Shown: positions 23,501-40,075 of the stretch, in pieces
How positions within the stretch are numbered: the stretch's first letter is position 1
Layout of the letters: each line of letters starts with the position of its first letter
DNA from: Planctomycetota bacterium
GTDB lineage: Bacteria > Planctomycetota > JAJSAM01 > JAJVHW01
Direction: 5' to 3'
Assembly (NCBI GenBank): GCA_965248445.1
Contig: CBDFJG010000004.1
Location: 1,312,001 to 1,376,000, forward strand
Length of the DNA: 64,000 nucleotides
Position numbers and translations under genes: made by a program
Notes under the pieces: model-generated
Databases searched by the model: none
Told to the model about the DNA's origin: nothing
The model's input: only the letters and a program-made list of their open reading frames with translations

Positions 23501-25972
23501 TCAGATGTCGAGCTCGGCGACGTCCAGCGCGTGCGCCTCGATGAACTGCCTGCGGGGCTCCACCTGCTCCCCCATCAGCACCGTGAAGATGTGGTCCGCC
23601 GCGACGGCATCCTCCATCCGCACGCGGAGGAGCGCTCGCTTGTCGCGCCGCAGGGTCGTGTCCCGCAACTGCTCGGCGTTCATCTCCCCGAGACCCTTGT
23701 AGCGCTGCAGGTCGATCGAAGCCTCGCCGATCGAGTACAGACGCTTGACGACGCCGCGCAGGTCGGAGCACGCATGCAGGTCCTTCTTGGTCTCGACGCC
23801 AAAGCGCGGGTTCCCGTCGTCGCGACGGAAGTCCTCCGCCGCAAAACCGAGCGCATCGAGTCGGGTCAGAAGGGCTGCCAGGTTGCCGCGCCAACGGAAC
23901 TCCGCGACGTAGACGTCCGGCGGTTCGAGGGCCGGCGTGTCCTCTCCCTCATGGAACCAGCGCACGTCGCGGTCCAACTGCGCGGCGGTGTCTGCCCCGT
24001 ACTGCTCGAACTCCTCCTCCGAGTGCAGGAAGAGTGTCTCACCCTCGGGGCGGCGCAGCCGGTAGAGCGGCAGGTCCCCCGCGGAGTTGCGCCGCTCGAG
24101 GAACGCGGCGAGGGTGAGACTCCGGCGATTGAGGCGCGCCTCCACCGACCCGAGGCCCTCGAGCACCTCGATCAGCTCCCGCACCGCGTCTCCTTCGATT
24201 CGGTCGCCGGCCGGGCGGCCTTCGTGGTCCACGCTCAGCACACACGACGCCTTGGCGCCGCCCTCGAGGAGGCGCGCGCGCATCTCGGATTCCGAGAGGA
24301 TGTACTCGACGACCCGGTTGTTGCGCTTCACGCCGTAGAGCGGCGGCTGCGCGACGTAGATGTGCCCACGCTTGATCAACTCGGGCATGTGCCGGAAGAA
24401 GAACGTCAGCAGCAACGTGCGGATGTGGCTGCCGTCCACATCGGCGTCCGTCATGATGATGATCTTGCCGTAACGCAACCCCTCGATGTCGAACGTGTCG
24501 GTGCCGATGCCGGTCCCGAGCGCCTGGATGAGCGTCTGGATCTCGCGGTGCTGCAGCATCTTGTCGATGCGCGCCTTCTCGACGTTCAGGATCTTGCCGC
24601 GCAGCGGCAGGATGGCCTGCGTCCGGCTATCGCGGCCGCCGCGCGCGGTGCCGCCGGCCGAATCACCCTCGACGAGGAACAACTCGGTCTCGTCGCGGTT
24701 GCGGCTCCGGCACTCGTACAGCTTCGTCGGCAGGCCACCTGAGAACAGCGCCGTCTTGCGCCGCACGAGGTCACGGGACTTGCGCGCCGCCTCGCGCGCC
24801 CGCCGTGCCAAGATCGCCTTGCTGACCATGCCCTTGGCGACGCGGGGATTCTCCTCGAGATACGTGGAGAGGCCCTCGGCCACGATCTGCTCGACCGGGC
24901 GCTGGATCTCGCGGCTGCCGAGGTTGCGCTTGGACTGCCCGCCGAACTGCGGCTCCGGCATGCGAACAGAGATCACCGCCACGAGCCCTTCGCGCCAGTC
25001 CTCGCCACCGGGCATCTCGTCGTCCTTCTTCACGAGCCCCGAACTCTGCGTGTAACGGTTCATCGTGCGCGTCAGCGCCGAGCGGAACGCGGAGAGGTGC
25101 GTGCCGCCCTCGTACGTGTTGATCGCGTTCACGAACGAGTAGATGGTCTCCGTGTAGGTCCCGTTGTACTGAATGGCGACATCCACCTCGAACGGTGGCT
25201 GTGCACCCGTCAGGTGGATCGGCTCCGGGTTCACGGGCGTCTTGTTGACGTTCAGGAACTTCACGAACGCAGCGATGCCGCCCTCGTACTGGAAGTCGAC
25301 CTCGTGCTCGCGATCCGGTCGCTCGTCCGTGAGCTTGATGTGCAGGCCGGGAGTCAGGAACGCGAGCTCGCGCAGTCGCTGTTGGAGCGTGTCGAAGTGG
25401 AAGTCGAGCTCGGAGAACATCTCGGGGTCCGGCAGGAAGTCGATGTACGTGCCCGTCTTGCTCGTCGCCTCGCCGACCTGGAGCTCCTGCGAGACGTCAC
25501 CCCGCTCGAACTCCATTGTGTGGACGTGTCCGTCCCGGTGCACCTCGACGCGCAGCCGGAGCGAGAGGGCGTTGACCACGGACACACCGACGCCGTGCAG
25601 CCCGCCGGAGACCTTGTAGGCCTGCTGGTCGAACTTACCGCCGGCATGCAGCGTGGTCATGATGACCTCGAGCGCGGGCTTGTTCGCCGTCTTGTGCATG
25701 CCGACCGGGATGCCCACGCCATCGTCGGTGACGCGGCAACTGCCGTCGGCCTTGATGGTGACGGTGATCAGGCCGCACCGGCCGGCCATGGCCTCGTCGA
25801 TCGAGTTGTCGACGACCTCGAACACCAGGTGGTGCAGGCCCTCGGTGGCCGTGTTCGGGACGTACATGCCCGGCCGCTTCCGGACCGCCTCGAGGCCCTC
25901 CAGGATCTTGATCTGGTCGGCGCCGTACTCGCGCTCGTCGTCCGACTGCTCGTGTGGGGTCTCGTCACTCAT
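23501..25972 (-). CDS. gyrB: DNA gyrase subunit B
   Basis: EAVRKRPGMY, EVVDNSIDE, LVEGDSAGG, PLRGKILN, MTDADVDG, RYKGLGEM. Confidence 0.97.
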   Translation of the reverse strand: MSDETPHEQSDDEREYGADQIKILEGLEAVRKRPGMYVPNTATEGLHHLVFEVVDNSIDEAMAGRCGLITVTIKADGSCRVTDDGVGIPVGMHKTANKPALEVIMTTLHAGGKFDQQAYKVSGGLHGVGVSVVNALSLRLRVEVHRDGHVHTMEFERGDVSQELQVGEATSKTGTYIDFLPDPEMFSELDFHFDTLQQRLRELAFLTPGLHIKLTDERPDREHEVDFQYEGGIAAFVKFLNVNKTPVNPEPIHLTGAQPPFEVDVAIQYNGTYTETIYSFVNAINTYEGGTHLSAFRSALTRTMNRYTQSSGLVKKDDEMPGGEDWREGLVAVISVRMPEPQFGGQSKRNLGSREIQRPVEQIVAEGLSTYLEENPRVAKGMVSKAILARRAREAARKSRDLVRRKTALFSGGLPTKLYECRSRNRDETELFLVEGDSAGGTARGGRDSRTQAILPLRGKILNVEKARIDKMLQHREIQTLIQALGTGIGTDTFDIEGLRYGKIIIMTDADVDGSHIRTLLLTFFFRHMPELIKRGHIYVAQPPLYGVKRNNRVVEYILSESEMRARLLEGGAKASCVLSVDHEGRPAGDRIEGDAVRELIEVLEGLGSVEARLNRRSLTLAAFLERRNSAGDLPLYRLRRPEGETLFLHSEEEFEQYGADTAAQLDRDVRWFHEGEDTPALEPPDVYVAEFRWRGNLAALLTRLDALGFAAEDFRRDDGNPRFGVETKKDLHACSDLRGVVKRLYSIGEASIDLQRYKGLGEMNAEQLRDTTLRRDKRALLRVRMEDAVAADHIFTVLMGEQVEPRRQFIEAHALDVAELDI

Positions 25973-26386
25973 CTAGAACACTCCCAATCGGAACCGAAGG
26001 CCCGTCACGCGCGCCGCTCGAGAGGCCTTACTGCTGCCGGCCGGCACCGTGTCCGCCGCGATCAATCGCTCCAGCAGGGCCTCTCGGCGAAACCCCTGCA
26101 ACTCATGCACCAGCGCCGCGCTACGCGCTTCGACGATCAACTCGCCCCGCCGAATGGCGATCGCTCGTGTCTCGGCCGCCAACTCCTCGCCGACGACCCG
26201 CGTCCAGAGATCCTCCACCCCGGTACGACGCTTGGCCGGGCGCATCCCCCGCGAGACTCGCTTCAGGATGGCGTCGATGCGCTCAGGGGAGCCGCCTCTC
26301 GAGTCGCCGTCCGTCCGTGAACCCGCGCCAGCCCCTGAACCCCCAGGCGCATGAGGACCCTCTGACCCGGGAGCTACACCGTCCAC
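25973..26386 (-). CDS. dciA: DUF721/DciA family helicase-loading factor
   Basis: LWTRVVGEELAAETRAIAIRRGELIVEARSAALVHEL; lies between dnaN and gyrB; start uncertain. Confidence 0.78.
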   Translation of the reverse strand: MDGVAPGSEGPHAPGGSGAGAGSRTDGDSRGGSPERIDAILKRVSRGMRPAKRRTGVEDLWTRVVGEELAAETRAIAIRRGELIVEARSAALVHELQGFRREALLERLIAADTVPAGSSKASRAARVTGLRFRLGVF

Positions 26387-26438
26387 TGTTGCCCGATCAC
26401 TCCCTGCCCCATCACACCCGGCACTGCGACTCCCGCGG

Positions 26439-27545
26439 TTACTCGAGGCTGACAGGCATCACGACATAGGTGTAGTCGCCCTCGGTGATCTTTCCGGGGG
26501 CGGCATGACCGTTCCATTCGAACGACACGTTGTCACCCTCGAGGACACCCAGCGCGTCGAGGAGGAACTCCGGGTTGAACCCGAGCATCTCCTCACCCCC
26601 GTCGTACTCGCACGAGAGCGTCTCCTCCGCCGAGCCCTCCTGGGAGCGCGCCCGGACGGTCAAGCCCTCCGGATGGAACCGCAGCTTCACCATCTGCGCG
26701 TCTCGGCTCGTGACCAAGGATGCCCGTCGGAGCGCCGCGTTGAACGCACCACGGGAGATCTGAGCGCGGTGGCTGCAGTCCTGCGGGATGACGTCCTCGT
26801 AGCCCGGGAAGCTGCCCTCGACGAGCCGCGACACAACCGTCGCGCTACCCGTCCGACCGCGGAAGTGGTTGTTGCCGATCGAGATCCAGACACTTGCGTC
26901 CGCGTCACCGAGGATCTTGTCGAGCTGCAACAGTCCTTTGGTGGGGACAATCGCTCGCAGCGTGACGCCACCGGGGTTCTCGCAACCCCCTTGCACGATC
27001 GCCAAACGGCGTCCGTCCGTGGCGACGAGTTCGATCGTCTCACCCTGAACCTGCAGCAACAAGCCGTTCAACGCGAATCGCATGCGCTCCTTGGCTGCAG
27101 CGAACGCCGTGCGCTTGATCATCTTGCGCAAGTCCCCGGCGCGTACGGCGATCTCTTCGGCGCCACCGACGTCCGGGATCTCCGGGAAGTCCTCTGGCGA
27201 GGGACCCTGCAGTCGGAAGTCACCTCTTCCAGCCTGCAAGAGGCACTCGCGACTCTCCCCGTTCCAGTCGAGGATCACATCGCCTTCGGGGAGTTCCCGG
27301 AGGATGGCCGCCAAGCGCTGTGCCGGCACAACGGCAGTCCCACCGTTCTCGACCGTCAAGCCGCCGTCCATCCCGACCACGACCTTCATCCCGATCTCGA
27401 GGTCCGTCGCTTGAAGAGTCAGATCTGTCTCACCTGTTGACAGACGCACACTCTCGTACACGGGGTGCACGCCCTTGGACGCCACTACACCGAGAACGGA
27501 CTGCACTGCCTTGTGCAGTGCATCGCGCTGGCATCGAAGCCGCAT
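26439..27545 (-). CDS. dnaN: DNA polymerase III beta clamp
   Basis: ATDLEI, VATDGRRLA, SRLVEGSFP, FNPEFLLD, YVVMPV; GGAGG RBS before ATG 27545. Confidence 0.97.
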   Translation of the reverse strand: MRLRCQRDALHKAVQSVLGVVASKGVHPVYESVRLSTGETDLTLQATDLEIGMKVVVGMDGGLTVENGGTAVVPAQRLAAILRELPEGDVILDWNGESRECLLQAGRGDFRLQGPSPEDFPEIPDVGGAEEIAVRAGDLRKMIKRTAFAAAKERMRFALNGLLLQVQGETIELVATDGRRLAIVQGGCENPGGVTLRAIVPTKGLLQLDKILGDADASVWISIGNNHFRGRTGSATVVSRLVEGSFPGYEDVIPQDCSHRAQISRGAFNAALRRASLVTSRDAQMVKLRFHPEGLTVRARSQEGSAEETLSCEYDGGEEMLGFNPEFLLDALGVLEGDNVSFEWNGHAAPGKITEGDYTYVVMPVSLE

Positions 27546-28087
27546 CGCTTCCTCCACGCCGTGCGTCTTCAACACGCCCGGCTTCTGGTTGGATCCTCTT
27601 TTGTCTTAGTAGTAGCAGTAAGGGCCGTGGACGGCGGGGATCCACGCCTTCAAGAGACGCGTAGATGGTGCTCCGCGTCGCGTGTGGGCCACTGTCCCCA
27701 GTGTTGTCCACGGTGGAGTCGCGGAGCGCAGTGCGCGGCGTACTCCGTGGAGTTTGCCCCCGGCCCTGTGACCCCGTGGACGGCTGGACGATTCTACCGG
27801 GCTGCGAACACCCCCTTGAAGGGACTTCGCACACGAGAGAGCACTGATTCGTGATCCCTCGACGAGCGGTTGATGATCCGGTGGAGAAACGGCTCGTAAG
27901 CGGGGAATGCCGGTGGAGAACCAGCGCTCGGCGCCTCCCTGGCGGCGGCCGGCCGACGTGGACGGTCCGTGGACCCGGCGAATCGACGCTGTGGAGAACC
28001 GGTGGGCGCGCTGGGGAGGGCGGTTGACAGGCGAACCAGGGATCGCCGCGCGCAGGGGCGGGGCGCCCGATCTCATCCAGCGCGGCC
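27546..28087. other. Putative oriC
   Basis: dnaA-dnaN intergenic region; DnaA-trio run TAGTAGTAGCAGTAA (27607-27621) followed by GGGCC and box-like CGTGGACGG; box-like TTGTCCACG (27704), GGTGGAGAA (27880, 27912), TGTGGAGAA (27990). Confidence 0.8.
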
Positions 28088-29752
28088 TCATCCGCCGCTG
28101 CGGATGCGGCGGCAGACGATGTCCACGTCCTCCTGCAGCCGCGCGTTGACCTGCAGTTCGCGGGCGATCTTCTCGCAGGCGTAGATCACGGTGGAGTGAT
28201 CCCGGCCGCCGAAGTGGGCGCCGACCTCGACCAGGGACTTGTCCGTCATCCGGCGAGCCAGGTACATCGCGATCTGGCGCGGGCGCGACACTGACTTGTG
28301 ACGTCGCTTCCCCATCAGATCCGAGGGTCGCTGGGCGAAGTGCTCGGCGCAGACGCGGATGATCGTCTCGATCGAGACCGTGCGTTCGCGCGACTGGATC
28401 ACGTCCCGCAGGGCCTCTTGCGCCGACTCGAGGTTCAGCGGCCGCTCGCAGAGCGTCGCATGGCTGCACACGCGCACCACGGCGCCCTCGAGCTCGCGCA
28501 CGTTCGCCGTGATGTTCTCCACGATCAACTCGATCACGTCGGCCGGCAGCGCGACGCCGCGCTGCGCGGCCTTGGTCCGCACGATCTCGGCACGTGTCTC
28601 GTAGTCGGGTTCGAGGATCTCGGTCACGAGTCCCCACTTGAACCGCGACACCAGCCGCTCCTCCAGCGTCGGGATGTCCCGCGGCGGGCTGTCACACGTG
28701 ATGATGATCTGCTTTCGTGAGTTGTAGAGAGAGTTGAAGGTGTGGAAGAACTCCTCCTGCGTCCGCTCCTTGCGGGCCAGATCGTGGATGTCGTCGATCA
28801 GCAGGAGGTCGACGTTGCGGAAGCGGTACCGGAAGTCGCGCAGCGCACCCGAGCGCACCGCAGCGACGAACTGGTTGACGAACGACTCGCAGGACAGATA
28901 GACGACGCGCGAGTCCGGGCGCTGCTCGAGCGCCCGTACGCAGATCGCCTGCAGAAGGTGCGTCTTGCCGAGACCCACGGAGCCGTGCAGGAACAGCGGG
29001 TTGTAGTTGTCGCCCGCGCCGTTGGCGACCGCCATGGCCGCCGCGTGCGCGAGCTGGTTGCTCGGACCGCTGATGAATGTGGCGAAGCGGTAGTTGTCGT
29101 TCAGGATGACGTCGGAGAGGAAGTGCCGGTATCGCGGGTTACCGAACAACTCCGTTCCCGTGTCGCTGAGCCCGATCGGCGCCTTGACCGGGCGGATCTC
29201 GTCACGCGCGCTGGCGGCTCGATGCACCGTGTCCTGGCCGCCGGCGAGCACCCCCCTCGGGTCGGCGATGGGCGGGTCGGCGATGGGTAGGTCGGCCATG
29301 GGATCTGAGATCGGATCGGGCTCGCCGGCCGCCGCGGTCATCACCGGCGCCCCAGTGTGCGCGGCGGGCGCGGCCTCGATCAGCACGCGTCGCTCCGTAC
29401 CGACGACGGAGGTGACCGCGGCGCCGATCACCGAGAGGTAGTAGGCGTCGATCCAGTCCTTCATGAAGGAGTTCGGTACGTTGAACACGTAGGTCCCGTC
29501 GCTCTCGAGGCGGGCGAGGCTCATGGCGCGGAACCACGTGTGGAACTGCTGCGGCGTCACGTGATCGCGCAGATACGCGCGAATGGGATCCCACTGTCCC
29601 GCACCGCTGAGCCCGGAAGCATCCAGCCCGGAGACGCCCAGAACCGGTCGGCCCGGCGATGGTTGGTGCTGGCCGGAGCGCTCCTGGCCGGAGTCCTCCC
29701 GCTCAGATCCCGAGGGCTTGTCCCGCCCCGGGGTAGTTGGCACGTCCGACAT
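28088..29752 (-). CDS. dnaA: Chromosomal replication initiator DnaA
   Basis: YNPLFLHGSVGLGKTHLL, LLIDDIH, QEEFFHTFN, NVRELEGA, GGRDHSTV; start uncertain (29752 or 29821). Confidence 0.97.
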   Translation of the reverse strand: MSDVPTTPGRDKPSGSEREDSGQERSGQHQPSPGRPVLGVSGLDASGLSGAGQWDPIRAYLRDHVTPQQFHTWFRAMSLARLESDGTYVFNVPNSFMKDWIDAYYLSVIGAAVTSVVGTERRVLIEAAPAAHTGAPVMTAAAGEPDPISDPMADLPIADPPIADPRGVLAGGQDTVHRAASARDEIRPVKAPIGLSDTGTELFGNPRYRHFLSDVILNDNYRFATFISGPSNQLAHAAAMAVANGAGDNYNPLFLHGSVGLGKTHLLQAICVRALEQRPDSRVVYLSCESFVNQFVAAVRSGALRDFRYRFRNVDLLLIDDIHDLARKERTQEEFFHTFNSLYNSRKQIIITCDSPPRDIPTLEERLVSRFKWGLVTEILEPDYETRAEIVRTKAAQRGVALPADVIELIVENITANVRELEGAVVRVCSHATLCERPLNLESAQEALRDVIQSRERTVSIETIIRVCAEHFAQRPSDLMGKRRHKSVSRPRQIAMYLARRMTDKSLVEVGAHFGGRDHSTVIYACEKIARELQVNARLQEDVDIVCRRIRSGG

Positions 29753-30432
29753 CTGCTTCCGCCTGTCTCCCGCGAGCCCGCCCGGCCCTTTGGCCAGGCG
29801 CGCTCCCGCGCCCACGCTCAACCGCCACGATCTTCACGCGCCCCCGCCGAGAGTCCCCGGGCTCTTCAGCCCCGCTCTCCCAGCGCCGGCGAACATCCGC
29901 GTCCTCGTCTTGGGCGGCAGACGGCCACCGGCGGCGCCCCACGCTCTGCGCCACCGCGCGTCCCACAGGGTCCGCGGTCCGATAGCCCGCGTCCAACTGT
30001 CGATGCGCCGTTCCGCGAGCCGCGGAGCAGCAAGGACCAATCTGCCCGCCGGGACCTGAGCCAATCCCTTGCGGACGCCGCCCTTATGCCGATCTGCCCA
30101 ATACCGAACCCACACCGAGAACCCGGAGCCCCGCAACGCGGGACCCGGCCCGGACGCCGATCACCGTCCCCCGCGTGTGCTCCCCTACGCGTCCTAAACT
30201 GGCGAAGGTAGGCACTCGAGAGGCGGGTCGCGGCTCACGTTCGACCGCGCTCCTGTCGCGCCGGACTCTCGGGTGTCGTGCATGTCGTGCCATTGGCGCA
30301 CGGTGCTTCGCTGCCCTGTTGTCCTGCGCTGCCCGCCGCATTGCCTTACGCGTCTGCCTTGGCATCTGCCTAATGCGTCTGTGGCGGGCTATCTTCGTTG
30401 CGCGGTGTCCTGTGACGTTCACCGGGTGCGAA

Positions 30433-30460
30433 ATTCTAGCGAGCGGCGGCGCAGAGTCAA
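30433..30460 (-). promoter_or_regulatory. Sigma-70-type promoter facing dnaA
   Basis: TTGACT-N16-TAGAAT on the minus strand. Confidence 0.55.
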
Positions 30461-30551
30461 ACGCGTCGCACAAGATTCGTCGCGCGCGTAAAGGCCGTTG
30501 ATTTGCTGCATCTCGGCGCGATGCGTCGTGCAATGCGCGAGAGTTTCCGGG

Positions 30552-31754
30552 CTAACTTTTTTCTTGTCGCGTTCCGACCGCCCGCACCCGCGGCACGATG
30601 ACGCGCAGTGCGTCGACCAACGCGAACACGTTGCGCGTCGTTGTCGTCTCCCCGAGTGAGACGCGAAGCACCTCGGCGACGCATGTCGCGTCGCGTCCCG
30701 CCGCGAGTAGCACGGCTGGCGGCGTGCGTGCGCCGCTGGCGCACGCGGTTCCGGCCGACACGCGAACCCCGACCTGGTCCAGCGCCGCGAGCACGACGTC
30801 GCCACGGCACCCCTCGAAGCGCACCGCCACGATGCCCGCAGCGCAGGGTTGCGTCGTGATGACCTCACCCCCCGTCGTCGTGCGAACGAACTCGAGAAAC
30901 GGCGCAAGTGCCGCTCTCCAGCGAGTTTCAGTGAGCGCCCGCGCTGCGTGCACGGCCTCGGCGGCCGCTCCGAACGCGGCCAGCAGCGCGGCGGCCTCGG
31001 TACCGCCTCGCCGCCCACGCTCCTGTGCGACGTGACCGCCCGGCGCGGCGAACGGCGCGCCGTCGCGCACGATGAGTGCGCCGGTCCCCGCGAGCGCACC
31101 GAGCTTGTGCGCGGACAGCGACACGAATGCCGCCGGCCGCAGCAGCGGCGCCATGTCCACGCGTCCCGCGGCCTGCGCGGCGTCGACATGCAGCGCGCTT
31201 CCGTCGGGCAGTGCGGCAGCGAACTGCATGACCGGCTGGACGTTTCCCGTCACCGGCTCGACGAGGGGAGCGGTTGCGATGCACGGCGACGACGGCGCGT
31301 CCGCGGCAAGAGCCGCGACGTCGATGCGTGCTGTGGCGTCGACGGAGAGAAACCGTACGTCGTGACCGGAGTCGCGCCAGCTCTCCGCCAGCGCGACGGT
31401 CGACGCATGTGATGCCGCGGTGAGCAAGAGCGGCGCATCGCCGAGCGCCCGACGCGCGCCGTGAAGCGCCAGCGCGTTCGACTCCGTGGTCCCTGACGTG
31501 AACACCACCTCACGCGGCGCTGCGCCGACCAGTGCCGCGACGTGCTCGCGAGCCTCCTCGACCACGCTGCGCAGGCGACGTCCCGCTGCGTGTGCGCTGC
31601 CCGGATTTCCCGGGAGCAGATCGAGCGTACGCAGCAGAGCTTCGCGAGCGGCCGGCAGCAGCGGCGCCCCCGCCGCGTGGTCGAGGTAGGCGTCCGGCGG
31701 GCGTGCTGGCGATCCCAGGGATCGGGAGCCTTGGCGGGATATCTCAAGCGGCAA
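30552..31754 (-). CDS. Cysteine desulfurase (NifS/IscS class V aminotransferase)
   Basis: YLDHAA, FTSGTTESN, HVDAAQ, SAHKLG (PLP Lys), SAGTACASG; start uncertain. Confidence 0.88.
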   Translation of the reverse strand: MPLEISRQGSRSLGSPARPPDAYLDHAAGAPLLPAAREALLRTLDLLPGNPGSAHAAGRRLRSVVEEAREHVAALVGAAPREVVFTSGTTESNALALHGARRALGDAPLLLTAASHASTVALAESWRDSGHDVRFLSVDATARIDVAALAADAPSSPCIATAPLVEPVTGNVQPVMQFAAALPDGSALHVDAAQAAGRVDMAPLLRPAAFVSLSAHKLGALAGTGALIVRDGAPFAAPGGHVAQERGRRGGTEAAALLAAFGAAAEAVHAARALTETRWRAALAPFLEFVRTTTGGEVITTQPCAAGIVAVRFEGCRGDVVLAALDQVGVRVSAGTACASGARTPPAVLLAAGRDATCVAEVLRVSLGETTTTRNVFALVDALRVIVPRVRAVGTRQEKS

Positions 31755-31854
31755 CCCCCCCGGGCTCGATGAGGAGATGTCGTCTCGCCCGTCGCGAGGA
31801 GGCTGTCCCGGAGGCTGACTCGGTGCCTCCGGGTGACGATCGGATGAGCTGCGC

Positions 31855-34173
31855 ATGAGTGTGATCAACCTCCGCGAACGGACGCTCGACGCCAAGATCG
31901 TCTACTACGGTGCTGCCCTCTCGGGCAAGACGACGAGCCTGAAGCACGTCCATCGTGTGATGGACCCTGATCGTCGCACGGAGCTGGTCTCCCTCAACAC
32001 CGAGGGCGACCGGACCCTCTTCTTCGACTTCCTCCCGATCCCGCTCGGCAGCGTCGGGGGGTTCAAGGTCCGGCTCCAGGGCTTCACCGTGCCCGGTCAG
32101 GTGAAATACAACCTGACCCGTCGCTTCGTGCTGCGGGGCGCCGATGCCGTCATCTTCGTGGCTGACTCCGGCGCAGAGGCGTTCGAGGCCAACGTGCTGT
32201 CGCTGCGATCGCTGCACGAGAACCTCGCTGTGAACGGCCTCGAGGCCACCGGTCTCCCGATCCTCATTCAGTACAACAAGCGCGACCTGCCCGACCCCGT
32301 CGAGATCGAACGCCTGCGTGAGGCTCTCAACGACGCAGGGTGGCCCGAGTACCCGACGACCGCGACGACCGGCGGCGGCGTGTTCGAGGCGTTCCGCCAC
32401 GTCTCGTGCGACATGCTCGAGTCACTGGCGCGCGAGTACGGGTTCAGCGAGGGCGAAGCAGCGCGCGAGGAGGTCGCGACTCGTCTCACGACTGTTCAGC
32501 GCGCGTACGACGCGCTGCCGGCCGACGAGTTCGAGGTCACCGCCAACGCGCCGTCGCCGCTCGCTGCTGACGACGGGGCCGACGAGGCACGTCTGGCACC
32601 GGTGATCGAGGTGTCGGGATCGCCCGACGAGGGCGAGGCGAACGTCGAGGAGCTGCTCGAACGTGCCGTGGACACGCACATGGAGGCCGCGCGCCTCATG
32701 TCGGAGTTGCACGCGACGCGCACGGATCTCTCCGACCGCGTGAATCAGCTCGCGGCTCTGCACGAGACGGGCGTGCTCATCTCGAGCGAGCTCGACGGCA
32801 AGAAGCTCCTCGAGCGGATCCTCGACCGCGCCCTCTCGACCGTCGGCAGCAAGTACGGCAGCGTGCTGCTGGTCGATCCCGTGGACGGCCAGCTCACCAC
32901 GGATCTCGTGCGTGGGTACACCTGCGACCCACTGGCGCTCGCCGGCGCCGCGCCGCCGGAACTCGCCGAGCGCGTGCTCGCCGGAGAGGCGTTCGCGGTG
33001 CGTTCCCAGCTCGAGCCCGGGCTGTTGAAGGCGCCCTTCATGAACGTGGATCCCCCCGCACTCGCCCTGATCTCCCCGATCGTGCACCAGGCCGAGGTGC
33101 TCGGCATCCTCACTGCGTACTTCCCGACGGATCCGGGGGACGACTGGGCGCGCAACCGCGCGCAGTTCCTGTCGGCAGTCTCCGCCCAGGCCGCGGCCGC
33201 GCTCGTCAACTCGCGTCTCTACGCGCGCATCGAGGGGTTCAACCGAGAACTCGAGCGCAAGGTCCGCGAGCGCACTCGCGCGCTACGCCGCGCATATCGG
33301 GACCTGCAGCAACTGGACGGCCTGAAGGACGACTTCCTCGCCTCCATGAGCCACGAGTTGCTGACGCCGCTCACGTCGATCACCGGCTTCGCCGAGATCC
33401 TCGAGACGACCGCCGCGGACGAGGGCGGCGACGCCGCGGAGAACCGGCACGAGTTCGCCACCATCGTCCGTCGGGAGGCGGGCAACCTGACCGCTCTCGT
33501 ACAGACCGTTCTCGACCTGTGCACGCTGGAAAGCGGACAGGCGCCACTGCGCACGGGCATGGTGAACGTGCGCGACACGCTCGAGGGCGCGTATCGAGAG
33601 ATGCGTGGCGCGTTCAAGGACCGGGCGATCCGGGTCCGCGTGCGGGTCGAGGAGAACATGCCTCTGGTCCATGCGGACGCCGCCTGGCTCGAGCGCGTCT
33701 TCGCGTCGCTGCTCTCGAACGCCCTCAAGTTCTCGCCGTCCGGTGGCGAGGCGTCGGTCTCCATCCGGCGCCACGGCACGAACGTCTTGGTCGACGTGAC
33801 CGACGAGGGTCCGGGTGTCCCCGCGGCACTCCGAAAGGTGATCTTCGAGAAGTTCAAGCAGGCCGGGGACCTCCTGACCGAGAAGCCCGAGGGGCTGGGC
33901 CTGGGTCTTCCCATGGCGCGGCTCATCGACGAGGGCATGGGCGGACGCATCTGGTACGAGACGCCGGAGGGCGGCGGCAGCGCGTTCGCCTTCATGTTGC
34001 CGATCGAGGCGCCGCCGGAGCCGTCCGGACCGCCCGCCCCCCGCCGGGAGGACGCGATCGACCTGGAGGACCTCGACGACGATCTGGACGAGGAGTCCGG
34101 GGATGCGGTGACCTCCCCGAGCCCACTGTCGTACGACGGGGCCGAGCCCGCCGCCAAGTCGCCCGCCGAGTAG
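31855..34173 (+). CDS. MglA-like GTPase-GAF-histidine kinase fusion
   Basis: KIVYYGAALSGKTT, DRTLFFDF, TVPGQ, NKRD; GAF-like middle; SHELLTPL, SNALKF, DEGPG, GLGLGL. Confidence 0.92.
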   Translation: MSVINLRERTLDAKIVYYGAALSGKTTSLKHVHRVMDPDRRTELVSLNTEGDRTLFFDFLPIPLGSVGGFKVRLQGFTVPGQVKYNLTRRFVLRGADAVIFVADSGAEAFEANVLSLRSLHENLAVNGLEATGLPILIQYNKRDLPDPVEIERLREALNDAGWPEYPTTATTGGGVFEAFRHVSCDMLESLAREYGFSEGEAAREEVATRLTTVQRAYDALPADEFEVTANAPSPLAADDGADEARLAPVIEVSGSPDEGEANVEELLERAVDTHMEAARLMSELHATRTDLSDRVNQLAALHETGVLISSELDGKKLLERILDRALSTVGSKYGSVLLVDPVDGQLTTDLVRGYTCDPLALAGAAPPELAERVLAGEAFAVRSQLEPGLLKAPFMNVDPPALALISPIVHQAEVLGILTAYFPTDPGDDWARNRAQFLSAVSAQAAAALVNSRLYARIEGFNRELERKVRERTRALRRAYRDLQQLDGLKDDFLASMSHELLTPLTSITGFAEILETTAADEGGDAAENRHEFATIVRREAGNLTALVQTVLDLCTLESGQAPLRTGMVNVRDTLEGAYREMRGAFKDRAIRVRVRVEENMPLVHADAAWLERVFASLLSNALKFSPSGGEASVSIRRHGTNVLVDVTDEGPGVPAALRKVIFEKFKQAGDLLTEKPEGLGLGLPMARLIDEGMGGRIWYETPEGGGSAFAFMLPIEAPPEPSGPPAPRREDAIDLEDLDDDLDEESGDAVTSPSPLSYDGAEPAAKSPAE

Positions 34174-34273
34174 CGCCTCCCCCATCAGCGCGTTGAACAA
34201 CTCGACGGGCCACGATCTCGGCCACAATCGGGGCTCACGCCGACTTCTTCAACGCACTGCTATCCTCTCGTCG

Positions 34274-34888
34274 TTGCGCGTTCTCCTTGTCGACAACTAC
34301 GACTCGTTCACCTGGAACGTCGTGCAGGCCCTCCGCACGTTCGGGGCGGATGTCGTCGTGCATCGCAACGACGCGATCGACGTCGGCGGCGCACTCGCAC
34401 TCTCCCCGGACGCTATCATCGTCTCGCCGGGTCCGTGCACTCCGGCGGAAGCGGGAGTCTCCGTCGATCTGGTGGTCGCCGCGGCGGAGCACGGCACGCC
34501 ACTCCTCGGTATCTGCCTCGGGCACCAGGCCATCGGTGTGGCGTTCGGCGGCCGCGTGGAACGCGCGTCGCGCCTCTTGCACGGCAAGACGAGCATCGTG
34601 CACCACGACGGACGCGGTGTGCTGGCCGGCCTGCCTCCGCGGTTCGAAGCGATGCGGTACCACTCACTCGTCGTTGCCGAGCCGCTGCCCGCGGTGCTGG
34701 AGCGCTCCGCGTGGACCGAGCCACCCTCCGCCGTGGACAGCGAACTGATGGCACTGAGACACCTGGAATGCCCAGTCATCGGCGTACAGTTCCATCCTGA
34801 GTCGTATCGCACGCACGAGGGTCCGCGGCTCCTCGAGAACTTCCTCGCACTCGCAACCACCGAAAGCCCCCGGAGGTCCCCGGCATGA
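34274..34888 (+). CDS. trpG: Anthranilate/ADC synthase glutamine amidotransferase subunit (TrpG/PabA)
   Basis: VDNYDSFTWN, SPGPCTP, GICLGHQ, RYHSL, QFHPES. Confidence 0.9.
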   Translation: MRVLLVDNYDSFTWNVVQALRTFGADVVVHRNDAIDVGGALALSPDAIIVSPGPCTPAEAGVSVDLVVAAAEHGTPLLGICLGHQAIGVAFGGRVERASRLLHGKTSIVHHDGRGVLAGLPPRFEAMRYHSLVVAEPLPAVLERSAWTEPPSAVDSELMALRHLECPVIGVQFHPESYRTHEGPRLLENFLALATTESPRRSPA

Positions 34889-35811
34889 CGGTTTCCGACT
34901 CCTGGCCCGCGCGCCTGCGCGCGGCGTGCCGCACCAAGTCCTCGGTCGTGTGCGTCGGCATCGATCCGCGCATCGAGATGCTCCCGTCGGAGTTCACGGG
35001 CAGCGGACCGGTGACGCACGAGGAGAAGGCCACAGCAGTCGGCGACTGGGCCACGGAGTTGCTGGACGTGATCGCCGACGTCGCGGTCGTTGTGAAGCCG
35101 CAATCCGCGTTCTTCGAACAGTTCGGGCCGGCCGGGTTCGCGGCGCTCGCCCGCACCATCCGCGCTGCGAAGGAGCGCGGCCTCCTTGTACTCCTTGACG
35201 CGAAGCGCGGGGACATCGGGTTCACGGTCGAGGCGTACGCGCGCGCGCTGCTCGACGATGAGGGCATGGGGGCCGACGCGCTGACGGTGAACGCGTACCT
35301 CGGCCGCGAGACGCTCGCGCCGTTCATCGCGCGAACGCGCGAGAGCGGCAAGGGACTGTACGTCCTGGTCAAGACCAGCAACCCCGGGTCCGCCGACCTG
35401 CAAGACCTGAACGTGGACGGGACCCCGCTGTATGAGCATGTCGCGCGGATGGTCGCCTCGATCGGTGACGAGACGCCCGTGGACGAGGGGGGTTGGAACT
35501 CCGTCGGCGCGGTCGTCGGCGCGACGTACCCCGAGGAACTGGTGCGCCTCCGCGAGCTCATGCCGCACGCGCCGATCCTGGTGCCGGGCTACGGCGCACA
35601 GGGCGGTGGCGCGGCCGATTGCCGAGGAGCATTCGGCAGCGACGGCCTGGGCGCGATCGTCAGCTCGTCGCGCGGGATCATCTTCGCGCACTCGCGGGAA
35701 CCCGGTGCGAGCGCACACGGCGATGGTGGTTGGCGCGCGGCCGTGCGCGACGCCGCCGCGTCCATGCGCGACGCGCTGCGCGCGGTCGGCGCGGGCGCGC
35801 CGCCGGCGTGA
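34885..35811 (+). CDS. pyrF: Orotidine-5'-phosphate decarboxylase
   Basis: CVGIDP, KPQSAFFE, DAKRGDIG, VKTSNPGS, PGYGAQGG. Confidence 0.93.
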   Translation: MTVSDSWPARLRAACRTKSSVVCVGIDPRIEMLPSEFTGSGPVTHEEKATAVGDWATELLDVIADVAVVVKPQSAFFEQFGPAGFAALARTIRAAKERGLLVLLDAKRGDIGFTVEAYARALLDDEGMGADALTVNAYLGRETLAPFIARTRESGKGLYVLVKTSNPGSADLQDLNVDGTPLYEHVARMVASIGDETPVDEGGWNSVGAVVGATYPEELVRLRELMPHAPILVPGYGAQGGGAADCRGAFGSDGLGAIVSSSRGIIFAHSREPGASAHGDGGWRAAVRDAAASMRDALRAVGAGAPPA

Positions 35812-35833
35812 CCATGCCGTGGTGACGCATGAC

Positions 35834-36571
35834 ATGATCCCTCCGAGTGATCCCGATTGGTTCGTCTCGGCGTTCGGCCGCGAGTACCTGCGCGTCTACG
35901 CGCACCGCAGCGACGCCGCGGCGAGGCAGGAAATCGATTTCGTGGCGTCCGCGCTCTCGCTCGGCGACGGGGATGCGCTGCTCGACGCGGGTTGCGGCGC
36001 AGGCCGGCACGCCCGCGCGCTGGCCGCAGCCGGGGCGCGCGTGATCGGCCTCGACCTCTCCCTCGACTTGCTGTCTCGTGCGAGCGACGCGGGCGGCGGT
36101 CCAGCGTACGTGCGCGGAGACTTGCGCGCTCTCCCGTTCGCTGATGCGGCGTTCGCACACGTCGCCTCGCTGTTCACGTCGTTCGGGTACTTCGACGACG
36201 CGGGCAACGCGGGACAACTCCGCGACTTCCGGCGCGTGCTGCGCGCTGACGGCCGCTTGTTCCTCGATTACATGAACGCCGAACGCGTCCGGGCGACTCT
36301 CGTACCGCGCAGCGATCGCACGGAGGACGGTGTCCGTTTGCTCGAGGAACGGCGCATTCGCGCCGGCCGCGTCGAGAAAGACGTGCGCGTGGAGCGCGAG
36401 GGTGAAGAGACGATGACGTGGACCGAGTCCGTCCGGCTCTACGACTGCGACGAGGTGCAGGCGTTGGTGCGCGGCGCACGCTTCGAGGTTCGCGACGTCG
36501 CGGGTGACCTGTCGGGAGCGCCGTGGACGAGCATGTCGCCGCGCACGATCATCGTCGGAGTCGCGGCGTGA
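35834..36571 (+). CDS. Class I SAM methyltransferase (candidate bacillithiol N-methyltransferase)
   Basis: LDAGCGAGRH, LFTSFGYF; stop overlaps the bshC start (GTGA). Confidence 0.8.
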   Translation: MIPPSDPDWFVSAFGREYLRVYAHRSDAAARQEIDFVASALSLGDGDALLDAGCGAGRHARALAAAGARVIGLDLSLDLLSRASDAGGGPAYVRGDLRALPFADAAFAHVASLFTSFGYFDDAGNAGQLRDFRRVLRADGRLFLDYMNAERVRATLVPRSDRTEDGVRLLEERRIRAGRVEKDVRVEREGEETMTWTESVRLYDCDEVQALVRGARFEVRDVAGDLSGAPWTSMSPRTIIVGVAA

Positions 36572-38130
36572 CGGTCATCCCCCCCGCCGATCTTCTCGCG
36601 GAGGACACGCTTGCGCGCGCGCTCGTGACGGGCGACCCGCGCGTTGCCGGGCTCGTGCGCGGCGCCGATGGCGACGAGGCCGCCCTGCTTGCGGCGGCGC
36701 GGGAGGCCGCGACGCGCGACATCGACAGGACCGCACTCGTGGATGCGCTGGTTGCCGGACTGGACGACCTGGACGCCCCCGACGGGGCGCGCGCCGCCGC
36801 GCGGCGGTTGGGAGAATCGGGTGTCGTCGCCGTCGTGGCGGGTCAGCAGCCCGTTCTGCTCGGCGGAGCCGGAATGGTCCTGACCAAGGCGCTCGCAGCT
36901 GCCGCCGTCGCGGCGCGTCTCGAAGCCCACGGCATCCCCGCGGTGCCGGTCTACTGGCATGCGAGCGAAGACCACGACCAGGGCGAGGCGGACCACGTCA
37001 GGCTCCTGACGGCCGACTGCGAGTCGTTCGACTCGTTCCGGCTGGCGTTGCCGGAGGACGGACGAACGCTCGCAGCGACCGCGCTCCCGCCCGGCACCGG
37101 GGATCTCGTCGCGACAGCGACCGCTCGGCTCCCGGACGGTGACGCCCGCGAGCGCATCCTCGAGTTGCTGGCGCCGCGCGACGGCGACACGTTCGGCCGT
37201 TGGACCGGCCGGCTCGTGGCGGGACTGCTGGGGCCACTGGGCATCGTCGTCGTGGAGCCCCACCGGCTGCGCCGGCTCGCCGCCGGGGTGACGCAGCACG
37301 AGCTGACCCATCCGCACGAACTGCACGCACGGGTCTCGGACGTCCTGCGCCGCCTCGAGGCGTCGGCGCCGGAGATCACGCCGCCCCTCGATCTGGCGCG
37401 CCCCGAGCTCTTGTTCCTTCTCGACGACGGCGTGCGGAGGGCCATCACGATCGACGCGGCGGCGGGCACGTACGCGACGCGGGCCGGGCCGGCCGGAGAT
37501 CTCGCGGCGCTGCGCGCCCGTGACCCGTCGGAGTTCTCTTGGAACGTCGTGGCGCGGGTCCTGGCTCAGAACACGGCCCTGCCCGTCGCGGCGCAACTCT
37601 GCGGACCCTCCGAACTCGGGTACGTCGCGATGTTCGGCGATGCGCACGAGGCCCTCGGACTCTCCCAGCCGGCCACACTGCTGCGTCCGGGGCTGACAGC
37701 CGTGCCGCGCAAGGCTGCCCGGGCGGCTCGGGCGCTCGACGTCGACACCGCTGCGGCGGTGCGCGGGGCGGCGGACGCGCTCAGCCCCGCCCTTGACGGA
37801 CCCGCGGCGGAGGCGTTCGGGGAGGCGCTCCGCGCACTCGAGGCGCTCCCAGAGGGCCGCAGTCCGGCGGTCGAGCGGCGGCGGGCTGAGCTCCTGCGCC
37901 GGCTGTCGCTGTTCGAACAGGCCTACCGCAGCGAGTACGAAGACCTCGACGCGACCCGCAGGAGACGCCTCCGCTGCCTGAGGACGTCCCTTCGGCCGCG
38001 CGATGGCCTCGCTGAGCGCACCCTCTCTCCCCTCACCTGGCTTGCCAGAGAGGGCCTCACGGCGCTGCCGAGGGTGCGCGACCTCCTGGACCGGCTCGAT
38101 GGCGGGCACGTGGTGGCGGAACTCGGATAG
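36568..38130 (+). CDS. bshC: Bacillithiol biosynthesis protein BshC
   Basis: VVAGQQP, VPVYWHASEDHD, FSWNVVAR, GPSELGY. Confidence 0.85.
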   Translation: MTVIPPADLLAEDTLARALVTGDPRVAGLVRGADGDEAALLAAAREAATRDIDRTALVDALVAGLDDLDAPDGARAAARRLGESGVVAVVAGQQPVLLGGAGMVLTKALAAAAVAARLEAHGIPAVPVYWHASEDHDQGEADHVRLLTADCESFDSFRLALPEDGRTLAATALPPGTGDLVATATARLPDGDARERILELLAPRDGDTFGRWTGRLVAGLLGPLGIVVVEPHRLRRLAAGVTQHELTHPHELHARVSDVLRRLEASAPEITPPLDLARPELLFLLDDGVRRAITIDAAAGTYATRAGPAGDLAALRARDPSEFSWNVVARVLAQNTALPVAAQLCGPSELGYVAMFGDAHEALGLSQPATLLRPGLTAVPRKAARAARALDVDTAAAVRGAADALSPALDGPAAEAFGEALRALEALPEGRSPAVERRRAELLRRLSLFEQAYRSEYEDLDATRRRRLRCLRTSLRPRDGLAERTLSPLTWLAREGLTALPRVRDLLDRLDGGHVVAELG

Positions 38131-38204
38131 CGTGTTCGTGCGTTCCCCCCGGGAACGACACGCCACCGACCGTCACACCCCCCGACCGCTAAGACCTCGA
38201 GGAG

Positions 38205-38939
38205 ATGACCCAGATGATCGACGTGCTCGCCTTCGGAGCGCACCCCGACGACGTGGAGCTCGCCATCGGCGGGACCATGCTCCGGCTGCGGGATGCCGGG
38301 CTCGCGCTCGGGGTGGTCGACTTCACGCGGGGCGAGCGCGGGAGCCGCGGTACCCCCGAGACCCGCGCCGCCGAGGCCGCGAAGGCGACGGAGATCATGG
38401 GGCTGGCCTTCCGTGAGACGCTCGACTTCCCCGACACCGAGCTCCAGCCGACCCTCGAGCTCCGCCGGGCCGCAGTCGAGGCGATCCGCCGCCATCGGCC
38501 GAAGATCATCCTCGCGCCTCTCTCGCACGACCTCCACCCCGACCACGCGGCTGCGGGGCAGGCCGTTCACGACGCGTTTTACCCTTCGGGCATGCGCAAC
38601 GCTGACGCCGCGGGGGAGGCGTACCGGCCGCTGCGGCTACTCCAGTTCGCGATGCACCACGAGGAGGGCAACGGGGTCGTGGTCGACGTGACGTCCGTCT
38701 GGCAGGAGAGGTTGGAACTCGCGCAGTGCTTCGCCAGCCAGCTCCACGCGCCGCCGCCCGGCACCGAGGGGGCTGACTTCCCCACCCTGATCGCCCGCGG
38801 TGACTTCCTGTCGCGAATCGCCGCGCGGGCGCAGGTCTGGGGACGCCGCGCCGGCGTCGTGTTCGGCGAACCGCTCTATCCGCTCGGCGCGCTGCCGATC
38901 ACCGACCCGCTCGCACTGCTCGTGGAGCCTCTGTCGTGA
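38205..38939 (+). CDS. bshB1: GlcNAc-malate deacetylase BshB1
   Basis: AFGAHPDDVELAIGGT, TRGERGSRGT, HPDH. Confidence 0.9.
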   Translation: MTQMIDVLAFGAHPDDVELAIGGTMLRLRDAGLALGVVDFTRGERGSRGTPETRAAEAAKATEIMGLAFRETLDFPDTELQPTLELRRAAVEAIRRHRPKIILAPLSHDLHPDHAAAGQAVHDAFYPSGMRNADAAGEAYRPLRLLQFAMHHEEGNGVVVDVTSVWQERLELAQCFASQLHAPPPGTEGADFPTLIARGDFLSRIAARAQVWGRRAGVVFGEPLYPLGALPITDPLALLVEPLS

Positions 38940-40075
38940 GCGATCGCCTGCGCATCGGGATCTGCTGCTACCCGACGTACGGCGGCAGCGGCGCCGTCGC
39001 CACCGAGCTCGGGCTCGCGCTCGCGGCGCGCGGCCACGAAGTCCACTTCCTCTCCTATGCGCGCCCGGCCCGGCTCGCGGGGTTCCACGCCAACGTCACG
39101 TTCCACTCGGTCGAGGTCTCGCAGTACCCGCTGTTTCGGTACCCGCCCTACGACCTGGCGCTGGCGTCCGTGATGCGCGACGTAGCGGCTCATCACGATC
39201 TCGACGTGCTCCACGTCCACTACGCGATCCCCCACGCGGTCTCAGCCATCCTGGCGCGCGAGATGCTCGGCGGTGGCCGCCGCCCGCGCATCGTGACCAC
39301 CCTGCATGGCACGGACATCACGATCGTGGGCGCGGAGTCGACCTACGTCCACCCGACGCGCTTCGGAATCGATCGCAGCGACGCGGTCACGGCGGTCTCG
39401 GGCTGGCTGCGCAAGGAGACCGACCGGATCTTCGCGCCGAAGAACGACGTGCAGGTGGTCCCCAACTTCGTGGACGTCGAGCGCTTCAAGCCGATGCGGT
39501 GCGAGGCGACGCGCACGGGTCTCGGCTTGTGCGACGAGCTCTGTCTGGCCCACGTGTCGAACTTCCGCCCGGTCAAGCGTGTCGAGGATGTGGTCCGCAT
39601 CTTCGCCCGGGTCGCGCGCGAACTCCCCGCACGCCTCGTGCTGGCGGGCGACGGTCCCGAGCGCACCCGCGCCGAGGCGATCGCTCGCGAGGAGGGTGTG
39701 TTCGATCTCTGCCGGTTCCTCGGCGAACAAGAGGAGATCGAACGCGTGCTCGCGTGTGCGGACCTGTTCGTGCTCCCCAGCGAGTCGGAGTCGTTCGGAC
39801 TCGCCGCACTCGAAGCGATGGCCTGCGGCGTACCCGTGCTCGGGACGCGTGCGGGGGGGCTGCCCGAGGTCGTCGCCGACGGCGAGACCGGCATTCTGTT
39901 CGAGATCGGCGACATCGAGACAGCGGCGCGCGAGGCGGTTGCCCTGCTTCGTGACGACGCGCGGCGCACGAGGATGGGTGCGGCGGCGCGGGAGCGCGCC
40001 GTCGCGCGCTTCGCCGAGAGCGACGTGGTTGCGCAGTACGAGTCGCTCTACCGCGGCGCCGCAGCGCTCGTCTGA
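38936..40075 (+). CDS. bshA: GlcNAc-malate synthase BshA
   Basis: CYPTYGGSGAVATELG, HVHYAIPHA, TTLHGTDIT, SNFRPVKR, ESFGLAALEAM. Confidence 0.95.
   Translation: MSDRLRIGICCYPTYGGSGAVATELGLALAARGHEVHFLSYARPARLAGFHANVTFHSVEVSQYPLFRYPPYDLALASVMRDVAAHHDLDVLHVHYAIPHAVSAILAREMLGGGRRPRIVTTLHGTDITIVGAESTYVHPTRFGIDRSDAVTAVSGWLRKETDRIFAPKNDVQVVPNFVDVERFKPMRCEATRTGLGLCDELCLAHVSNFRPVKRVEDVVRIFARVARELPARLVLAGDGPERTRAEAIAREEGVFDLCRFLGEQEEIERVLACADLFVLPSESESFGLAALEAMACGVPVLGTRAGGLPEVVADGETGILFEIGDIETAAREAVALLRDDARRTRMGAAARERAVARFAESDVVAQYESLYRGAAALV

Follow-up and report, generated by a model that had tools for sequence, protein, structure and literature searches.

Can a Ras-like GTP switch be wired directly to two-component phosphotransfer, and if so, what would the connecting element be? 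The question is raised by a gene (31855-34173, + strand) in the stretch of DNA analysed here, positions 1,312,001 to 1,376,000 of contig CBDFJG010000004.1 from a Planctomycetota bacterium (assembly GCA_965248445.1); we refer to this whole 64,000-nucleotide stretch as the window. The gene encodes a 772-amino-acid protein in which an intact MglA-type GTPase heads a helix-GAF-helix-DHp-CA chain (DHp, dimerization and histidine phosphotransfer; CA, catalytic and ATP-binding), with the catalytic residues conserved in sequence on both sides. We regard the fusion as genuine and conserved; both signalling modules are known, their combination apparently undescribed. Our preferred reading of its function, to which we assign a probability of about one half, is that it is a soluble, dimeric, G-protein-gated histidine kinase whose G domain, docked on helix 262-311, controls the balance between kinase and phosphatase activities.

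An MglA-type GTPase at the head of a histidine kinase

The initial annotation, made from the letters of the sequence alone, had proposed an MglA-type small GTPase as the input domain of a soluble GAF histidine kinase, and its description of the protein holds throughout. The gene is a single open frame from ATG to TAG with no internal stop. Residues 1-193 align without gaps to Myxococcus xanthus MglA (PDB 5ymx, E 4e-56), and the GTPase motifs lie where they had been placed: GAALSGKTT at residue 19 (residues 19-26, GAALSGKT, fit the P-loop pattern GxxxxGK[TS]), DRTLFFDF at residue 52 with the intrinsic R53, TVPGQ at residue 78 and NKRD at residue 141. Pfam matches over the curated cut-offs cover GAF (316-450), HisKA (491-561) and HATPase_c (608-718), and the H, N, G1, F and G2 kinase boxes are all intact. 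A Pfam scan of the whole protein returned no receiver domain, and hydropathy gave no transmembrane helix, the top 19-residue value of 1.52 falling on GAF strands. The full-length AlphaFold2 (AF2) model, built on 87 sequences (mean predicted local distance difference test, pLDDT, 85.4; predicted template-modelling score, pTM, 0.62), lays out a G domain, an extra helix at 200-220, a disordered linker, a helix at 264-311 running into the GAF domain and a helix at 429-519 running from GAF into DHp. Foldseek matched the MglA structures 6izw and 6h17 (target template-modelling scores 0.91-0.93) as well as HK853-type and WalK kinase cores; a fold search with residues 1-300 matched G domains only and thereby barely probed the extra helices.

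Is the fusion authentic? A search with residues 1-300 gave 1666 matches among 8000 candidates, 120 of them listed, and the few named sources within the best of these are Planctomycetota. From the matches listed we took the best 81 and dropped four truncated or frameshifted rows, leaving a core set of 77 full-length fusions, the query included. In all 77, the GTPase residues K25, T26, R53, T54, D58, Q82, N141, K142 and D144 are invariant, as are the kinase residues H500, E501, T504, P505, N622 and D650 and the G1 and G2 glycines. Pairwise distances of the G domain and of the kinase correlate across the set (r 0.88). The fusion is found in all eight genomes of the family and in 15 of the 17 of the order, one copy being interrupted by a contig end; completeness is 79% and 90% for the two genomes without it. 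Of four sequencing runs, three each yielded one contig that covers the gene with zero differences, although the runs represent one sample, possibly the source itself. An assembly chimera, or a recent accidental fusion lacking functional coupling, is thus a possibility to which we give next to no weight, because hundreds of independent full-length homologues in two phyla carry the fusion, its locus is conserved and contigs run unbroken across the gene. The same homologues dispose of the concern that relatives might exist only as split genes. On sequence evidence, then, the fusion is old and its parts are co-inherited.

A tree of 295 G domains places all 83 that are joined to GAF and/or kinase parts in one clade of 96 (Shimodaira-Hasegawa support 0.968), separate from 199 other MglAs; the remaining 13 members are short forms, fragments or unassigned proteins. 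The clade, whose taxonomic spread the initial annotation had singled out as a check, spans Planctomycetota and Thermoanaerobaculia-like Acidobacteriota and holds five kinds of protein: G-GAF-kinase fusions like the one in the window, acidobacterial-type fusions, kinases lacking GAF, G-GAF proteins that end after GAF, and GTPase-only forms. The acidobacterial-type set bears the names Thermoanaerobaculales or Holophagae where a name is given (4 of 120 rows); the GAF-less fusions are some of the rows among P0090-P0120 plus loci L179, L181 and L050. At L050, a receiver-GGDEF gene follows the GAF-less fusion. Two further oddities are a 934-residue member (P0202) with GAF and PAS domains ahead of a degenerate kinase core, and a second fusion copy in genome G013 (L049:8994-11838) that lies away from dnaA and next to a response regulator; residue 53 is K in this copy, and its H box differs.

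The surface of the clade's G domain is remodelled. The aromatic face F56/F57/F59 is kept, K84, V/T42, N48 and Y91 replace residues that are conserved in other MglAs, and the basic pair K181/K185 is lost: the protein itself has R181 and C185, and position 181 in the clade is mostly V, T or A, as against K (58%) or R (16%) in other MglAs.

A candidate coupling helix and a model for gating

If the G domain does act on the kinase, what connects the two? The best candidate, judging by conservation and modelling, is helix 262-290. Its motif was detected in 209 of 210 G-GAF-CA proteins, 17 of 26 G-CA proteins, 12 of 24 G-GAF proteins without CA (by our reading mostly fragments or degenerate kinases) and one of 13 unassigned proteins, counts that are partly circular in that the profile was built from many of these positives. 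No instance was found in 20 short forms, 198 outgroup MglAs or the 11 clade members that end after GAF. In other words, the helix co-occurs with the kinase and not with the GAF domain. In GAF-less relatives the coupling helix leads straight into DHp, leaving the G domain as the only recognizable sensor.

Modelling points the same way. AF2 gave residues 1-300 (150 sequences) a pTM of 0.86 with about 30 residues disordered, where by our estimate an undocked helix would give about 0.7; in our reading, the helix is thereby confidently predicted to sit on the G domain. A complex prediction of the G domain (1-225) with GTP and Mg against residues 256-470 scored 0.41, compared with 0.01 for the best control, the runs having at least 65% of contacts in common and a partner pLDDT of at least 78. 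Of 157 solved complexes, 116 reach the mark, as do 2 of 215 mismatched pairs; at or below 0.60 it is reached by only 18 of the 157 and by both mismatches, making this weak support.

Genomic association provides a further argument for gating. Of 79 acidobacterial-type loci, 44 spanned at least 8 kb and 40 of these held the full gene. Where the phospho-acceptor histidine is present, a receiver gene, or a second kinase whose start looks receiver-like by eye, neighbours the fusion in 19 of 21 loci, versus none of 19 where it is absent; 16 of those 19 have a DUF4388 gene instead. This association probably reflects two lineages, not 40 independent cases. In the His-bearing Thermoanaerobaculia-like clusters, one finds a receiver-like kinase, the fusion, a single-domain receiver and a RimK-like ligase. 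A two-gene (split) form that we considered at acidobacterial-type loci was rejected, being a separate kinase upstream of a full fusion.

What might the molecular mechanism be? The G domain is predicted to fold back across the flexible linker and dock on helix 262-311, which is in turn predicted to continue into GAF and the DHp coiled coil. The GDP/GTP switch, in MglA a three-residue register shift of strand beta2 (PMC6876712), would alter the contact between G domain and helix and so shift the coiled coil, and this shift would adjust kinase versus phosphatase activity at H500 towards an unlinked response regulator; GAF would serve as a second input. Hydrolysis of GTP might be triggered in trans, by roadblock proteins encoded elsewhere or by an outside partner. 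The G domain may also bind an outside partner through its remodelled surface (K84, V/T42, Y91, loss of K181/K185), and we propose that this job is why it survives loss of the histidine, of the kinase, or of kinase and GAF together. For M. xanthus MglA, two structural papers report that GTP shifts switch 1 by three residues, that MglB positions R53 without inserting a residue of its own and that spontaneous nucleotide exchange is slow (PMC6876712), and that MglB meets a face formed by F56, F57 and F59 while its C-terminal helix occupies a pocket of L64, I67, K181 and K185 (PMC6785124); the two papers disagree on whether MglB accelerates exchange. Mimicry of that MglB helix by helix 200-220 is only a lead: an apparent clustering of its covariation contacts on the pocket was not reproduced on a larger alignment (one of the top 10, p 0.8), and the pairs V67-F197 and L64-S198 scored within noise.

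Evidence against gating, and other possible roles for the G domain

In favour of an input role, the G domain is N-terminal and is the sole recognizable sensor in GAF-less relatives, helix and kinase go together, and the helix is predicted to dock. Several observations weigh against it. All 117 full-length acidobacterial-type members keep every GTPase residue together with the N, G1 and G2 boxes, and yet 97 of them lack the phospho-acceptor histidine, which only 20 retain. The GAF-less kinases keep the histidine and have mostly replaced R53 (S 54%, A 33%, T 12%; 24 rows), so a hydrolysis cycle is not required in every member. The GTPase is also kept without any kinase. At E 1e-75, a clade profile matched 38 genomes in a sample of 401 from the phylum; among the 20 loci retrieved for inspection (19 of the 25 matches outside the order plus one earlier match) there were one G-GAF protein, two GAF-less kinases and 17 short orthologues of 218-226 residues, at the same locus in four families. 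A further 95 short proteins came from a database search; the clade signature is present in 80 of them, and of these 79 have R53 and 79 have Q82. The clade-specific K84 persists in these kinase-less forms and so cannot serve solely for helix docking, and a separate helix-GAF gene was not found in the short-form genomes (best E 2e-8, versus 1e-37 to 1e-76 for true orthologues). Covariation (mean-field direct coupling analysis, effective depth 94-128) gave scattered pairs between G domain and helix, none coherent. The linker is long and variable, compatible with mere tethering, and a cognate response regulator was not identified.

How did the short forms arise? They are nested within the kinase-bearing clade (FastTree 0.962; IQ-TREE clade support 98.5), and a constraint placing them outside it was modestly rejected (approximately unbiased test, p 0.037; 48 of 132 rows, simple model). 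The two results together make secondary loss of the kinase the likelier history, as far as the trees can tell. Since the GTPase is retained after loss of the histidine or of the whole kinase, the G domain must also have a kinase-independent job, either older than or parallel to any gating. The proposal of a GTP/GDP switch as kinase input therefore stands in part: position, GAF-less forms and helix speak for it, and input alone is insufficient to account for a GTPase that outlives its kinase.

Three other roles deserve consideration, and none excludes gating or the others. The likeliest of them, though doubtful, is that the G domain localizes the kinase in a GTP-dependent manner, to a pole, a membrane landmark or another partner, as MglA-GTP does, while activity is set by GAF and local partners. 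A flexible, variable linker would suit such a role, as would the persistence of the G domain alone with its remodelled surface conserved and the MglB-face residues F56, F57 and F59 (PMC6785124) retained, and a DUF4388 gene occurs both in the mglAB cassette of the protein's own genome and beside 16 of the 19 His-less loci. Set against this are the helix, which goes with the kinase and not with GAF and for which docking on the G domain is predicted, and the GAF-less forms, which have no other recognizable sensor.

Could information instead flow in reverse? The GAF-DHp-CA dimer would then be the regulator and the GTPase the output, with binding of a ligand, of ATP or of a phosphorylated regulator moving a helix that acts as a built-in GTPase-activating protein (GAP), guanine-nucleotide exchange factor (GEF) or inhibitor, or that pairs two G domains; the cooperation of kinase and GTPase in the actinobacterial conservons would be comparable. 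This we consider unlikely, even though the G domain is the most conserved part of the protein (top-residue frequency 0.74, versus 0.54 for GAF and 0.64-0.68 for the kinase), GTPase and ATP-binding residues outlast the histidine in the acidobacterial-type set, the GTPase survives loss of the kinase (an origin of the short forms outside the fused clade being rejected only modestly), and a roadblock gene was not found in three of 38 clade-carrying genomes. H500 is invariant in the protein's own clade, His retention tracks neighbouring regulators, and the GAF-less clade, in keeping the histidine and losing R53, suits flow from G domain to kinase.

A third and improbable role is that of a metabolic sensor: nucleotide exchange on the G domain would need no protein regulator, and the G domain would signal the state of the GTP/GDP (or ppGpp) pool to the kinase. 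No GAP or GEF gene is adjacent, the pocket that takes the C-terminal helix of MglB has lost K181/K185, and R53-less kinase forms occur; however, the invariance of R53 and Q82 in the protein's clade implies triggered hydrolysis, the slow spontaneous exchange of M. xanthus MglA (PMC6876712) is a poor fit, and 35 of 38 carrier genomes do have roadblock genes.

Relation to known systems

Roco proteins (Roc-COR, LRRK2-like) combine a Ras-like G domain and a kinase in one chain, and the likeness drawn to them in the initial annotation is sound as a concept. It goes no further, for the protein has no COR or LRR domain (Pfam, E up to 0.1), a histidine instead of a Ser/Thr kinase, and a G domain of MglA type instead of Roc type. 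An MglA-Ser/Thr protein kinase fusion does exist at L051:2-2185 (-) in genome G037, seen once and clipped by a contig end; it groups with ordinary MglAs and thus arose separately, and by analogy it is closer in spirit to Roco. With soluble GAF-HisKA sensor kinases, the protein shares the arrangement of GAF, signalling helix, DHp and CA and the E-x-x-T phosphatase motif of HisKA kinases; it differs in its N-terminal GTPase, in being an orphan gene without an adjacent response regulator, and in having L or M at His+3, where such kinases usually have Arg. For the His-less relatives (97 of 117 in the acidobacterial-type set), an analogy is provided by DivL-type pseudokinases, in which the phospho-acceptor histidine is replaced, unlike H500 here.

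With Group 1 MglAs (M. xanthus and Thermus thermophilus, PDB 5ymx, 6izw, 6h17 and 3t12, including the orphans SofG and Bdellovibrio MglA), the protein has the fold, G1-G4, R53, TVPGQ and F56/F57/F59 in common. The group is defined by an intrinsic Arg beside the G2 Thr, here R53-T54, and in the known family mglB lies within four genes in 390 of 449 members (PMC4316618). Thus, the Group 1 motifs are all present, whereas size and coupling to mglB depart from the group: 772 residues fused to GAF and kinase instead of a stand-alone 150-240, mglB uncoupled, an extra helix past helix 5, the K181/K185 pocket lost, and K84, V/T42 and Y91 substituted. The survey that established the MglA groups (PMC4316618) left out sequences longer than 240 residues and for that reason would have been blind to fusions.

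The closest working analogue is provided by the actinobacterial conservons (CvnA-D; PMC13343842, PMC4316618), in which a histidine kinase works together with an MglA-family GTPase. The kinase CvnA8 autophosphorylates on His, and the four core genes of a conservon include no response regulator. Conservon components are encoded by separate genes: the GTPase belongs to Group 2 (GTPGQ, without the intrinsic Arg), the operon also contains roadblock and CvnC genes, and the kinase has LPxR at its C-terminus, whereas here one finds TVPGQ, R53, LPIE at the end of the CA domain, and iscS-like, dnaA, trpG-like and pyrF neighbours. As the initial annotation had suspected, the architecture seems not to have been characterized: full-text literature searches, weighted towards open access with most subscription papers outside, returned no description of an MglA-kinase fusion. 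The kinase-less orthologues, too, are apparently an undescribed MglA subfamily, in some genomes apparently without MglB.

Chromosomal neighbourhood and partner genes

Table 1. Features of the fusion gene, its neighbours and the second MglA cassette of the same genome (positions in the window unless a contig is given)
Feature	Position	Strand	Residues	Remarks
MglA-type GTPase - coupling helix - GAF - HisKA - HATPase_c, whole gene	31855..34173	+	772 in total	
Group 1 MglA-type G domain	31855..32430	+	1-192	PDB 5ymx match; Foldseek; key residues in 77/77 core sequences
Lengthened helix 5 and extra helix 200-220	32431..32544	+	193-230	AF2 pLDDT ~92-97
Acidic linker, variable, predicted disordered	32545..32637	+	231-261	pLDDT <50 at 234-247; low conservation
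Conserved coupling helix, continuing into GAF	32638..32787	+	262-311	motif LLxxAVxxNxxxAxL
GAF domain	32788..33219	+	312-455	conserved G-x-x-x-DP motif; Pfam GAF/GAF_2
Signalling helix, GAF to DHp	33220..33324	+	456-490	continuous helix 429-519 in AF2 model
HisKA/DHp domain	33325..33537	+		H-box HE(L)(L/M)TP; phospho-acceptor H500 codon 33352-33354
HATPase_c catalytic domain	33676..34008	+		N/G1/F/G2 boxes
Acidic disordered C-terminal tail	34015..34170	+		unconserved
IscS/NifS-like aminotransferase class V gene	30552..31690 (5' end approximate)	-		divergent; constant upstream neighbour
dnaA, then dnaN, dciA, gyrB	28088..29821	-		context kept for gene and kinase-less orthologues
Downstream block: glutamine amidotransferase (trpG/pabA-like), pyrF, methyltransferase, bshC, bshB-like deacetylase, bshA-like glycosyltransferase	34193..40075	+		
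Second MglA cassette of the genome	C1 ~406.8-413.8 kb (L034:4839-11804)			

The elements of the protein and its surroundings are collected in Table 1; the region of residues 193-230 is found in the kinase-less short orthologues as well. Does proximity to the origin matter? The start of dnaA lies about 2.1 kb upstream of the fusion gene, and the cumulative GC-skew minimum of the contig falls in the 20-kb bin containing that gene. Contig ends interrupt five of the 15 fusion loci and two of the 17 short-form loci (L162-L177 and L180, 17 genomes); in the other 10 and 15, respectively, dnaA is within 4.2 kb. An iscS-like gene is present at all 17 short-form loci. These short-form families fall outside the window's class, which comprises only three families. 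The speculative link to an origin about 2 kb away comes down to conserved dnaA synteny, which housekeeping neighbours share: the trpG-like, pyrF and bsh genes are equally conserved at the locus, on the opposite strand in short-form lineages. At four other clade members and the acidobacterial-type loci examined, dnaA is not adjacent, and a word search on the dnaA context gave nothing. We take the synteny, judged on gene order, as evidence of orthology and not of a role in replication. A far-reaching proposal is that these proteins form an unrecognized class of G-protein-gated histidine kinases, present in two phyla and based on an MglA subfamily that does without MglB. In uncultured Planctomycetota the dnaA-side GTPase, whether or not joined to its kinase, would couple a GTP switch to replication initiation or cell-cycle polarity, and the kinase would broadcast its state to two-component signalling. 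This proposal is in our view a long shot.

An operon with the trpG-pyrF-bsh block was considered and rejected, since at the GAF-only locus and at each of the 17 short-form loci the block runs on the opposite strand; a functional operon of the co-oriented downstream block with the kinase is accordingly improbable. Compared with the other families examined, the window's class has this bacillithiol-type block (bshC, bshB-like and bshA-like genes with pyrF and a trpG-like gene) inverted. A search for a sigma-70-like promoter directed at the fusion gene found none, and there were no Rfam matches within 25000-42000 of the window. The dnaA-dnaN intergenic region (27576-28100) holds three GTGGAGAA repeats and one more DnaA-box-like site, and likely belongs to oriC; this interval has four two-mismatch DnaA-box sites, against a window mean of 0.34 per 525 bp, and few canonical boxes. 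Directly after gyrB lies a gene for an MshEN-domain protein with an Ala/Pro-rich tail (22454-23347, -), a position conserved in several relatives.

Which proteins might the fusion talk to? As first noted, neither a roadblock nor a response regulator gene is adjacent: the window holds none of the genome's three roadblock matches and none of its 33 receiver matches. A search of the whole genome, suggested at the outset, located MglB-like genes elsewhere, and a cognate regulator was not identified. All three roadblock matches lie at 410.5-413.8 kb of another contig, C1, where they flank a second MglA; the cassette encodes a DUF4388/TPR/beta-propeller protein, a TPR-roadblock protein, a roadblock protein, a 388-residue MglA with a low-complexity tail and a hydrophobic C-terminus, and an MglB with an acidic C-terminal helix. 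The roadblock genes of the 35 carrier genomes likewise lie elsewhere; in the three of 38 where none was found (90, 91 and 97% complete), the short form is the only MglA found. One candidate regulator, the own-genome best match (46% identity) to the regulator beside acidobacterial fusions, was rejected, as it has an adjacent kinase of its own. At about 486.3-488.5 kb of contig C2 in the same genome, a sigma-54-type response regulator gene seems to be split over two reading frames, a possible assembly frameshift.

Outlook

Bacterial small GTPases and two-component systems are known to communicate through separate proteins, as in RomR/Frz and the conservons. Here the two modules share a single chain, which would provide a purifiable system for asking whether a Ras-like switch gates phosphotransfer. 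Additionally, the family supplies its own natural controls: His-less, Arg-less, GAF-less, kinase-less and GTPase-only versions of the protein.

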